Origin: a virus
Reading direction: 5' to 3' (one strand)
DNA length: 34,917 bases
Virus record (IMG/VR): IMGVR_UViG_3300000227_000001
Coordinates: 1 to 34,917 of that record
Part shown: one piece after another, positions 20,150 through 22,259 of the stretch
How the letters are laid out: every line of letters begins with the position of its first letter
Numbering within the stretch: position 1 is the first letter of the stretch
The notes under the pieces: model-generated
What the model was told of the DNA's origin: nothing
The model's database searches: none
What the model saw: the letters and a program-made list of their open reading frames with translations, nothing else
Program-made: the position numbers and the translations under genes

Positions 20150-21061
20150 TTAGATGAGGTCAAGCAACGGGTAGCGCTGCTTGAAGTTGAAGCGCTTCCA
20201 GGTCTGGGGATGCTGGACCGAAGCGGCTTTGATCTTGAGCTTGTACAGCTGCTGGTAGGCCTCCGTGCCCATGGCAATGATGCGCTCAGGCGCCAGGTCA
20301 TACAGCACGGACAGGTCCTGATCGGAGTTCAGCCAGAGGATGTCGTCCTCGCCAACCTCGATCAGGTCCAGTTGGTCGGCCAACCACTGGCTGCAACCCT
20401 CGTCACTGAACGAGGCGAAGGGCCACTGGTACCAGGGATCGTTGTCCTCGCGCTCAGCAAACGACTCGCCGATCAGCACGATCCGGGCGTCCCAGTTGCC
20501 AGCCGAGGCCAGACCAAGCGGGTGTTGGCGCATACGCAGGCCATCGATCAGCAGAGCCACCTTGTTGACCTCGAACAGGTCGCCCCTCGTGTAGTCGTAG
20601 TCCACCAAGGGCAAGTCCGTCGGCTGCTCAGCATAGAGGTCGTAGACCGTCTTGAGTTGGTACTCGTTGTCCAGCATCTCGATGTGCTTGCGGCTGAGGT
20701 AGTTGGCCTTGACGGTCTCCCAGCTGGGTTGGCACTTGACCACAACAGCGCCGCACCGCATGGCCAGCCGCTCGAGCATCCGGCGGCTGGCCGACGTCAA
20801 GCGATCCTTGCCCTCACGGAACGCGACGCCGTACGGCATCTCACTCAGCCAGCAGCGATCGAAGACCACGTCCTGGTAGCCAAGCAGCGCCGGCATCATG
20901 GCCTCGACGTACATGCGGCCGAGGTTCTTGCCGACGCGAGGCAGCGAGGTGAAGTGCACGTACTTGGCGCCGGTCATCTGGGCGTAGGACTGGGCGGCAG
21001 TCGATTTGCCGCCACCGTCCGGGCCCTCGAAGATCGTCAGCTTGCAGCTCACTTGGTCCAT
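20150..21061 (-). CDS. Fusion protein: N-terminal dNMP-kinase-fold P-loop domain plus C-terminal uracil-DNA-glycosylase-superfamily-like domain
   Basis: The N-terminus has FEGPDGGGKST (thymidylate-kinase-type P-loop) and DRCWLSEMPYG (compare the DRY..S..AY motif). The C-terminus has VLIGESFAE (compare GEAPG), PFAS...G.S.WL and VQHPQ (compare HPS), resembling family-4-like UDG motifs. Confidence 0.7.
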   Translation of the reverse strand: MDQVSCKLTIFEGPDGGGKSTAAQSYAQMTGAKYVHFTSLPRVGKNLGRMYVEAMMPALLGYQDVVFDRCWLSEMPYGVAFREGKDRLTSASRRMLERLAMRCGAVVVKCQPSWETVKANYLSRKHIEMLDNEYQLKTVYDLYAEQPTDLPLVDYDYTRGDLFEVNKVALLIDGLRMRQHPLGLASAGNWDARIVLIGESFAEREDNDPWYQWPFASFSDEGCSQWLADQLDLIEVGEDDILWLNSDQDLSVLYDLAPERIIAMGTEAYQQLYKLKIKAASVQHPQTWKRFNFKQRYPLLDLI

Positions 21062-21447
21062 GACAGAATCTCCTCCAGGCGCGCCTCGGGGCCAGTCCAG
21101 CCTTCCGGCTTCTTGACATCGAAGGCGCTGCCCCGCTTGCTGTCCTCAGCCTTGGCCACACGGACCTTGGCCATGTTGCACGAGTGGACGGCGTCCATGC
21201 CAGCGTGCCACTGAGCTGCATCGATGCCAGCGAACAGCGCCGTGCCGTAGGCTACGTAGACCAGATCCAGCAGAGCGTCGAACACCTTCACGCGGTTGCC
21301 CTCGGCGAGCGCCTCCTTGAGCTCGTCTAGCTCCTCTTGCAAGAACTTGACCCGGAACTCCTGAGCTGCCGGGTCGTTCATGAGTTGATCAACAGCCCCC
21401 ATAGGGAGGCCGAACTTTTCGTGGAACTCAGCGACATTGCCAATCAT
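21049..21447 (-). CDS. MazG/HisE-like all-alpha nucleoside triphosphate pyrophosphohydrolase
   Basis: FHEKFGLP ... FLQEELDELKEA ... DALLDLVYVAYG ... NMAKV matches the phage MazG-like pattern. Its start overlaps the MTase stop (TGATG), and its 3' end overlaps the next gene by 13 nt. Confidence 0.8.
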   Translation of the reverse strand: MIGNVAEFHEKFGLPMGAVDQLMNDPAAQEFRVKFLQEELDELKEALAEGNRVKVFDALLDLVYVAYGTALFAGIDAAQWHAGMDAVHSCNMAKVRVAKAEDSKRGSAFDVKKPEGWTGPEARLEEILSWTK

Positions 21448-22259
21448 CAGAACGGCGCTCCTTTCGTGGTGGTCTTGCGAGCAGGCTTGACCGGCTTGCC
21501 GTCAGCGGCTTTGCGGCAGACCCAGAGGTTGTTGCGAGCATGGTCCTCGTACAGCGGGCCAAAGATGTTGCTGATGGCGTCGTTGTCAAAGTACTGCTCC
21601 AAAGCCTTGCGAATCTCCAGCACAGCCGCCTTGCTGCAGCCGGTGGGGTCGGCCTTGCCGATGTGCTTGATGTCCATGAACGTGCCGAAACGGCGCTCGA
21701 CCACGTAGCCAGCCTTCTCGATGTAGCTCTGCAGCTCAGGCACCGTGTACTCGTGGATGTGGTTGGCCGCGTGGCGCTTGCCATCGTAGACCGGGGTCGA
21801 GAGCAGCAGGACACCGCCCGGCTTGGTGCAGGCGAACATGGCCTTGAGCAGGTTGGCACCGTGCTCGACCTTCATGTGTTCGATGACCTCGTAGTTAACG
21901 ACGACATCCCAACCCTCGGGACGCTTCTTGAGCAACTCCTTGTAGCGCTCGACGAAGTTGAACTCGCCGTGGAACTCCAGACGCTGGTTGTTAGACGGCT
22001 TGAGCTTGTTCAGATCCACGCCGGTGTAGTGGCCAACGTGAGCAGCAGCTCCGCCAGTCAGGATCTTGCTGAGCGGCTTGTCCTCGCCGCAGCCGACCTC
22101 GAGGACGTTGTCCTTGGCCGAGATGAAGCGGCGGGCAAAGCTCCAGCGGAAAAAATGTGCGGAATAATCTCTGTGAAGCGTGCGGCCGTGGCCTGCCTCA
22201 CGTAGCTGGGTGGTGTCGTAGTCGCGGGAGTCGCGTGAAACTTCTTTGGATTTGGCCAT
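21447..22259 (-). CDS. Class I SAM-dependent methyltransferase (small-molecule type; substrate unknown)
   Basis: Motif I VLEVGCGEDK follows HFFRWSFA. The post-II-like motif is VVNYEVIEHM. I saw no DPPY/NPPY or C5-MTase PC/ENV motifs. Confidence 0.8.
   Translation of the reverse strand: MAKSKEVSRDSRDYDTTQLREAGHGRTLHRDYSAHFFRWSFARRFISAKDNVLEVGCGEDKPLSKILTGGAAAHVGHYTGVDLNKLKPSNNQRLEFHGEFNFVERYKELLKKRPEGWDVVVNYEVIEHMKVEHGANLLKAMFACTKPGGVLLLSTPVYDGKRHAANHIHEYTVPELQSYIEKAGYVVERRFGTFMDIKHIGKADPTGCSKAAVLEIRKALEQYFDNDAISNIFGPLYEDHARNNLWVCRKAADGKPVKPARKTTTKGAPF

Follow-up and report, generated by a model that had tools for sequence, protein, structure and literature searches.

Gene content and order of the locus

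We analysed the viral stretch IMGVR_UViG_3300000227_000001 (positions 1 to 34,917 of the record, 34,917 nt; hereafter the window), and in particular a gene for a class I S-adenosylmethionine (SAM)-dependent methyltransferase (MTase) that opens a cassette of nucleotide-metabolism genes and whose candidate substrate is the hydroxymethyl group of 5-hydroxymethylcytosine (5hmC). In the window, which derives from a virulent siphovirus related to Stenotrophomonas phage AXL3, the plus strand carries the structural genes and the minus strand those for replication and nucleotides. Judged by the MTase, the nearest cultured relatives are AXL3 and Pseudoxanthomonas phage PW916 (71-72% identity). Five genes form one minus-strand block in the order MTase, MazG, a fusion of a deoxynucleoside monophosphate (dNMP) kinase with a uracil-DNA-glycosylase (UDG) fold, a ThyA homologue with Asp at the position of Asn177 (Asp-type), and dCMP deaminase:

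22260..22362, minus strand: upstream gap of 103 nt, in which an AAGAGG ribosome-binding site precedes the MTase ATG by 8 nt
21447..22259, minus strand: class I SAM-dependent methyltransferase, 270 aa, Hen1/UbiG-like; proposed 5hmC O-methyltransferase (Pfam Methyltransf_23, AlphaFold2 fold, invariant residues)
21049..21447, minus strand: MazG/PRA-PH-type nucleoside triphosphate (NTP) pyrophosphohydrolase, 132 aa; proposed to clear dCTP (and dUTP) (Pfam PRA-PH, PHROG)
20150..21061, minus strand: two-domain protein, 303 aa, dNMP/thymidylate-kinase fold plus family-4 UDG fold (PHROG, AlphaFold2, VIA-align)
19354..20139, minus strand: thymidylate-synthase homologue, 261 aa; predicted dCMP hydroxymethylase (Pfam Thymidylat_synt, diagnostic residues)
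18885..19397, minus strand: dCMP deaminase, 170 aa from a GTG start, with an alternative ATG at 19352 (Pfam, PHROG)

An earlier note on this DNA had described the MTase and MazG reading frames as translationally coupled, and the sequence bears this out: the minus-strand frames 21447-22259 and 21049-21447 meet at ...CCG TTC TGATG ATT..., where the stop TGA and the start ATG have the A in common. The motifs that it quoted, VLEVGCGEDK and NYEVIEHM, are both found in the MTase translation. Its statement that the MTase heads the operon is good for gene order only, because the MTase is indeed the first gene of the block and the 103-nt gap upstream yielded no sigma-70-like promoter. Further down, MazG and the kinase gene overlap by 13 nt, the kinase and ThyA genes are separated by about 10 nt, and the ThyA and deaminase genes abut or overlap. 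The 1-nt MTase/MazG overlap is limited to close relatives, whereas the adjacency of the two genes is widely kept. The order MTase, NTP pyrophosphohydrolase, kinase, ThyA homologue, deaminase is also annotated in AXL3, PW916 and an uncultured siphovirus, and it recurs in an uncultured podovirus whose MTase is only 30% identical.

Family, fold and motifs of the methyltransferase

The MTase matches Pfam Methyltransf_23 with 54.3 bits against a gathering cut-off of 27 (E 1.7e-14), and its AlphaFold2 model (pLDDT 93.3, pTM 0.90) has the Rossmann-like, seven-strand class I MTase fold, with the hallmark glycine-rich motif I VLEVGCG and a nearly invariant D82 as the acidic residue after strand 2. In an alignment of 58 diverse members, E124, E127, H128, P156, H167, E170 and G192 are invariant, and the family has a nearly invariant N-terminal motif of its own, HRDYxAHxxRW. 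The Hen1-type motifs EVIEH and H-x-x-E-[WY]-T are also invariant across the family; when the MTase is aligned pairwise with Hen1 (3jwg), EVIEHM falls on EVIEHL and NHIHEYT on DHRFEWT. Hen1 is the best single-sequence match in the PDB, the family profile retrieves UbiG (2e-11), human HENMT1 (1e-10), bacterial Hen1 (3e-10) and plant HEN1 (1e-9) from the same database, and the top two of 18,950 NCBIfam models are Hen1 (1.5e-8, spanning the whole Hen1 MTase domain) and UbiG (1.2e-7). Hen1 and UbiG are metal-dependent O-methyltransferases. The two Glu and two His residues of Hen1 that align with E124, E127, H128 and H167 are those that we take to hold the catalytic Mg/Mn ion activating the acceptor hydroxyl. 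In the modelled MTase, E124, E127, H128 and H167 come after strands 4 and 5, the region in which the acceptor site of class I enzymes is formed, and it is from this that we infer their spatial role. Going by its sequence, the MTase bears the hallmarks of a metal-dependent O-methyltransferase.

The motifs expected of the common DNA methyltransferases are missing, as the earlier note had observed. The (D/N/S)PP(Y/F/W) motif of N6-adenine and N4-cytosine enzymes is absent from the MTase translation, which matches no such Pfam family, and neither the translation nor the Pfam matches show the C5-cytosine methyltransferase motifs PCQ, ENV or QxRxR. A structure-based homology search, which had been put forward as a way to the substrate, confirmed the class I MTase fold and went no further: the top rows of Foldseek (PDB) and VIA-align are tied between CmoM (Z 18.5), TleD, CgnL, RebM, UbiG and others, so no substrate can be deduced from the fold search. 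At residues 247-270 (21447-21520, minus strand) the MTase has a Lys/Arg/Pro-rich tail, KAADGKPVKPARKTTTKGAPF, which is modelled with low confidence and is confined to close relatives; it may be a nucleic-acid-binding tail.

These matches raise the question whether the MTase is a Hen1-like enzyme that methylates the 3'-terminal ribose 2'-O of RNA, or some other RNA methyltransferase by which RNA of the host or the phage is protected or altered. Hen1 is both its best NCBIfam match and its best single-sequence PDB match, the metal-ligand motifs are held in common, and the top structural match, CmoM, is a tRNA enzyme. However, the score against the Hen1 model is 33.6 bits where the cut-off is 340, and no Hen1 N-terminal domain or Pnkp partner was seen: the protein consists of the MTase domain only and its neighbours are MazG, kinase, ThyA and deaminase genes. 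An RNA substrate would also leave unaccounted for the near-absolute linkage to an Asp-type ThyA homologue and the fusions to DNA C5-methylase-like domains described below. We therefore regard an RNA target as very improbable.

Linkage and distribution of the methyltransferase family

The linkage to the ThyA homologue was assessed on 130 distinct viral loci (MTase identity 28-97%), gathered by two family-alignment scans of IMG/VR together with GenBank matches. The ThyA homologue lies inside the fetched flanks in 115 of the 130 loci, and in 79 of the 84 that have at least 5 kb on each flank. When the five ThyA-less loci were searched as whole contigs, four proved to encode ThyA elsewhere, and the fifth is a 12%-complete fragment. 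All linked homologues (115/115) keep Cys146 and Tyr94 and have Asp at Asn177. The linkage holds down to 28-30% MTase identity and across podovirus and siphovirus backbones. Co-occurrence with Asp-type ThyA, named beforehand as a check on a role in DNA modification, is thus strongly positive. On one 62-kb phage contig of 41% GC (L123:7653-9911), an N-terminally extended MTase of 378 aa precedes a ThyX-like gene (PF02511, 1.3e-10); a ThyA homologue is present on this contig, far from the MTase.

Members of the MTase family are nearly all viral. When 5.8 billion proteins were searched, 710 relatives were returned, of which the best 120 are all metagenomic, on contigs of up to 68 kb, and an exhaustive search of 1.84 billion representatives gave 1429 matches, including 120 below 1e-30. 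Nearly all of the closest ESM Atlas clusters are viral and without a name; several sources annotate the protein as a UbiG-like quinol methylase. Among 185,579 prokaryotic species, each represented by one genome, there are seven true family members: five on phage-sized contigs with the full cassette, one short fragment and one fused form. The earlier note had reasoned that a family found broadly without nucleotide-metabolism neighbours would speak against a role in nucleotide modification; this near-absence from cellular genomes, with the full cassette in five of seven cases, is the opposite picture. The only cellular-looking copy (L192:7848-10470) is a 612-aa protein with an MTase domain and an unmatched 310-aa C-terminal part. 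It adjoins a phage integrase near serS on a 635-kb contig of a proteobacterial metagenome-assembled genome (MAG), with no ThyA within 8 kb, and may sit at a prophage edge.

The same data bear on the idea that the target is a protein or small metabolite, with inactivation of a host factor as one possible purpose, and that co-regulation is all that ties the MTase to the cassette. Its fold is common to many natural-product and small-molecule methyltransferases, and the quinol methylase annotations would suit such a function. Yet the linkage persists at 28-30% MTase identity on both podovirus and siphovirus backbones, fusions to DNA-methylase-like domains occur repeatedly and in both orders, and the family is almost absent from cellular genomes. 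We give such a target very little likelihood.

A reciprocal scan starting from the ThyA homologue found 80 loci, 60 with the MTase and 20 without it. Seven of the latter are cut off upstream; the other 13 contigs, among them eight complete genomes, have no MTase anywhere, and a carbamoyltransferase sought in the same 13 was not found. The presence of the same ThyA type without the MTase in these contigs fits the MTase being an optional decoration step, a pattern like that of the T4 glucosyltransferases and other decorating enzymes. One of the MTase-less phages, complete at 56 kb (L295:3739-7337), has three other genes upstream of MazG, one of them with a weak match to pyridoxal phosphate (PLP)-dependent enzymes (1.8e-4); the slot may here hold another decoration module.

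The cultured phage AXL3 has the same cassette, with an MTase 72% identical to that of the window. Of 37 restriction enzymes, only TasI (AATT) and Tru1I (TTAA) cut AXL3 DNA, which resisted all 35 enzymes with G or C in the site (PMC7504290). This pattern suggests that C (or G) is modified and that T is essentially normal.

Predicted product of the ThyA homologue

The window ThyA homologue matches Pfam Thymidylat_synt (1.4e-21), and its best solved sequence relative is the CMP hydroxymethylase MilA. It retains C146 and Y94 (E. coli numbering), and its diagnostic residues at positions 143, 147, 169 and 177 compare with those of other types as follows:

Window ThyA homologue (motifs TKDVPCT, RSSD and RSSDVWLGVPYD): D143, T147, D169, D177
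T4-like Td: L143, H147, D169, N177
XP12, PaMx74 and Xoo-sp2 ThyA (the XP12 enzyme has been shown to make 5mdCMP): N143, P147, D169, D177
SPO1-type dUMP hydroxymethylase: D143, N147, D169, N177
Mosigvirus ThyA homologue: E143, T147, N169, D177

Among the 109 linked copies that were parsed, D143 is present in 109, D169 in 107 and the full D143/T147/D169 set in 105. Asp at position 177 goes with dCMP as the substrate (PMC8670742). A bulky residue at 143 goes with methyl products and an acidic one with hydroxymethylases of the T4 type and MilA (PMC13326640), and D169N is the mark of the 5-hydroxy-dCMP synthases of RB69, DLP3 and Mosigvirus (PMC13326640; 2026 paper). By this signature the window homologue is very probably a dCMP hydroxymethylase. 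Three other ideas about this enzyme type were set aside. The Mosigvirus homologue moha_139 was considered gp42-like and was rejected, as its E143/N169 identify a 5-hydroxy-dCMP synthase (PMC13326640). A route through 5-hydroxycytosine and O-methylation to 5-methoxycytosine was rejected because D169 is retained. Trp80 as a discriminator between methylases and hydroxymethylases was dropped, since the column shifted between two alignments.

The alternative is that the ThyA homologue is a dCMP methylase of the XP12 type, so that the DNA carries 5-methylcytosine (5mC) and the MTase acts elsewhere, or on DNA with a C5-like partner, independently of any hydroxyl. Five of seven Asp-type ThyA homologues beside deaminases that were tested at NEB made 5-methyl-dCMP (bioRxiv 2024.12.05.627091), and full 5mC substitution would also fit the restriction resistance of AXL3. 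Several features separate the two types, however. The window type has D143/T147 where XP12, PaMx74 and Xoo-sp2 have N143/P147, and it lacks the thymidylate-synthase-like segments, YGxxW and the C-terminus, that the XP12 type keeps. In XP12 and Xoo-sp2 a dihydrofolate reductase (DHFR) gene stands beside ThyA, whereas none was found in three complete relatives of the window or in AXL3; and the 5mC phages XP12, PaMx74 and Xoo-sp2 have no such MTase. Finally, relatives of the window have a separate ThyX, encoded in five of the five tested (four complete IMG/VR genomes and AXL3), although as an argument for a non-methyl ThyA product this is weak for the window genome itself. Taken with the residue signature, a 5mC product seems to us decidedly unlikely.

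Fusions to a C5-cytosine-methylase-like domain

Long forms of the MTase (576-1116 aa) make up 29 of the 150 best representatives. A Pfam scan of nine of them found PF00145 (C5 cytosine DNA methylase) in seven, on either side of the MTase domain, and these are all the long forms with a match outside the MTase part. The fused domain retains FAGGF, PPC, ESV and QxRxR, which suggests catalytic competence or at least a capacity for base flipping. In two of the seven, P0140 and P0146, the C5-like domain is split by an intein with a LAGLIDADG endonuclease. The same kind of domain occurs as an adjacent, translationally coupled gene in 12 viral loci, in some of which it overlaps the MTase gene by 4 nt. 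Asp-type ThyA is nearby in eight of these, which are all those with enough flank, and two more have a ThyA homologue elsewhere on the contig; the remaining two loci end just past the MTase. TET/JBP proteins were sought in the 12 relatives bearing the C5-like gene and none was found, in a search run without a positive control. As Rosetta-stone evidence, the fusions and adjacent genes suggest that the MTase works on cytosine in DNA.

Which atom of cytosine would be methylated is a further question. The MTase might act on another atom of the modified base or its surroundings (N4, N3 or a phosphate oxygen), making for example N4-methyl-5hmC and not an ether. The strict Asp-type ThyA linkage and the C5-methylase-like fusions suit any cytosine-directed methylation, and the invariant Arg residues of HRDYxAHxxRW could bind phosphate. 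Set against this, the (D/N/S)PP(Y/F) motif by which exocyclic-amine methyltransferases are known is missing from the MTase, and the families nearest to it, together with the invariant E-x-x-E-H...H set, are those of hydroxyl-directed, metal-dependent enzymes. We regard methylation of another atom as unlikely.

Other genes of the cassette

The MazG-like protein matches Pfam PRA-PH (3.8e-12; 46.9 bits, cut-off 21.3) and the PHROG nucleotide pyrophosphohydrolase (2e-24), and the acidic EExxE metal motif is present in its translation as QEELDELKE. PRA-PH co-occurs with Asp-type ThyA in modified-cytosine viromes (PMC8670742), and both observations are consistent with the dCTP/dUTP-clearing role that had been thought plausible for it. 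The kinase protein matches the PHROG thymidylate kinase (7e-16), has the P-loop GPDGGGKS and is modelled by AlphaFold2 with a pLDDT of 92.8. Its residues 1-176 match dTMP and deoxynucleoside kinases (VIA-align Z 13.8-12.9), and residues 178-303 match the Thermotoga maritima UDG 1l9g (Z 10.4, rmsd 2.5, 119 aligned) and UdgX 6ail (Z 10.0). The family-4 UDG-like domain is truncated and has GES and HPQ in place of the UDG motifs GEAPG and HPS. Many close relatives lack the kinase/UDG-fold gene and have a segment of about 400 nt instead. The deaminase matches Pfam dCMP_cyt_deam_1 (2.1e-19) and the PHROG dCMP deaminase (6.7e-36).

A candidate pathway to 5-methoxymethylcytosine

The gene order, family membership, conserved residues, strict co-occurrence and fusions observed at these loci can be read as one pathway, whose enzymatic activities, metal dependence, acceptor atom and stage of methylation we infer. 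MazG would hydrolyse dCTP to dCMP, and the Asp-type ThyA homologue would convert dCMP to 5-hydroxymethyl-dCMP, which the kinase and the host nucleoside diphosphate kinase (NDK) would raise to 5-hydroxymethyl-dCTP. The deaminase would provide dUMP for dTMP synthesis, for which a host enzyme would be needed here. The DNA polymerase would then build 5hmC-DNA. The MTase would be the decorating enzyme, in the place that belongs to glucosyltransferases in T4 and to a 5hmC carbamoyltransferase in other phages. It would transfer the methyl group of SAM to the oxygen of the 5-CH2OH group, with a divalent metal held by E124, E127, H128 and H167, to give 5-methoxymethylcytosine. Methylation could take place on the nucleotide or, more likely, on DNA, the latter because of the fusions to DNA-methylase-like domains.

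The earlier note had left the substrate of the MTase between a modified nucleotide, a hydroxymethyl group and a protein. On the strength of the ThyA product signature and of the O-methyltransferase motifs that recall Hen1 and UbiG, the 5-hydroxymethyl oxygen is the substrate that we propose, and we put the probability that the MTase is a 5hmC O-methyltransferase making 5-methoxymethylcytosine at roughly 0.5. Tentatively, the AXL3/PW916 group of phages may replace cytosine with 5-methoxymethylcytosine by means of a phage-specific, Hen1-like, metal-dependent MTase, with a base-flipping C5-like domain fused to it in a sister clade.

Several points weigh against this reading. The ThyA homologues tested at NEB that made 5-methyl-dCMP are one, as a ThyA enzyme with that product would leave no hydroxyl for the MTase to methylate. 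The MTase is not a member of the Hen1 or UbiG families, because its scores (33.6 bits for Hen1 TIGR04074 against an equivalog cut-off of 340, and 31.2 for UbiG TIGR01983 against 102.95) lie far below the cut-offs, and VIA-align against 48,161 chains does not discriminate, since many class I MTases unrelated to one another score Z 17-18.5. Metal chelation by a lone hydroxyl is weaker than by the vicinal diol used by Hen1. The C5-methylase-like partner has no explained role where C5 is already modified at the nucleotide level. In the literature library that was searched, no report of O-methylated 5hmC in DNA or of such an enzyme was found. Finally, ThyX is missing from the window at its syntenic place, 31265-31301; in the relative L088 the flanks of this place both match the window and enclose about 700 nt that include ThyX. 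Without ThyX, the T4-like dTMP branch would rely on the host. The ThyX on contig C89 of the MAG is unrelated to phage ThyX.

The proposed pathway resembles that of T4, in which gp56 is a dCTPase/dUTPase, gp42 a dCMP hydroxymethylase, gp1 a dNMP kinase and cd a dCMP deaminase, and alpha- and beta-glucosyltransferases act last. Both have an NTP pyrophosphohydrolase, an Asp-type ThyA with an acidic residue 143, a dNMP kinase, a dCMP deaminase and an extra decorating enzyme. They differ in that the window genes form one compact block, the pyrophosphohydrolase is of the MazG/PRA-PH type, the kinase carries a UDG-fold domain, and the decorating enzyme is a SAM methyltransferase and not a glucosyltransferase. 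With the XP12-type 5mC phages the window shares an Asp-type ThyA beside a deaminase and an NTP pyrophosphohydrolase, in phages of Xanthomonadaceae among others, whereas the XP12 type has N143/P147, the thymidylate-synthase-like segments and a DHFR gene, and no SAM methyltransferase.

Each enzyme likeness also has its limits. Hen1/HENMT1, the best curated-family match, shares the class I fold, EVIEH and the downstream H-x-x-E-[WY]-T, but the score is very low, the accessory domains and the Pnkp partner are lacking, and the company of the MTase points to DNA cytosine and not to RNA ends. UbiG/Coq3, the best solved-structure profile match, also has an E-x-x-E-H segment behind strand 4, and its methyl acceptor is a hydroxyl oxygen, but the substrate of UbiG is a membrane quinol, the score is far under the cut-off, and HRDYxAHxxRW is the phage family's own. 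A precedent is the 5hmC carbamoyltransferase of uncultured phages found by MetaGPA, which acts on the 5-CH2OH of 5hmC and is active on 5hmdCTP and single-stranded DNA (PMC8670742). It keeps the same company (Asp-type ThyA, PRA-PH, dCMP deaminase) and uses the same hydroxyl as proposed for the MTase, but its fold is unrelated and its donor is carbamoyl phosphate with ATP.

If the reading is correct, 5-methoxymethylcytosine would be the first base with an O-methyl group in natural DNA. Its synthesis would likewise be the first case of a methyl group being put on the hydroxymethyl handle, which in other phages is glycosylated, carbamoylated or phosphorylated. To our knowledge, all known phage DNA hypermodifications begin at a pyrimidine hydroxyl handle, to which sugars, carbamoyl, pyrophosphate or amino acids are transferred, and we know of no description of methyl transfer to it. 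5-Methoxymethylcytosine would then be a new natural base, carried by two cultured phages and by an environmental phage group that is widespread (hundreds of contigs), and would explain the near-total restriction resistance of AXL3. The MTase would also be a new enzyme to tag or protect 5hmC in epigenomic sequencing, which the 5hmC carbamoyltransferase and 5mC-selective deaminases, from the same kind of cassette, already serve.

Surroundings of the cassette

Just upstream of the cassette lie two paralogous small proteins (22363-23016 and 23369-23770, both on the minus strand) with Ala/Lys/Pro-rich, histone-H1-like stretches and a common C-terminal domain (...W-Y-R...). The tblastn matches of both coincide on the same stretches in many relatives, and XP12 and Xoo-sp2 have a gene annotated as 'TolA' at a comparable place. 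The window is contig C24 of a bacterial MAG (2.4 Mb, 351 contigs), that is, a phage contig in a bacterial bin. The same cassette is found on phage-sized contigs in five further GTDB MAGs from unrelated taxa (Thiobacillus, Flavobacterium, Saccharibacteria, Chromatiales and Nitrospira), so that bin membership is uninformative on the host.

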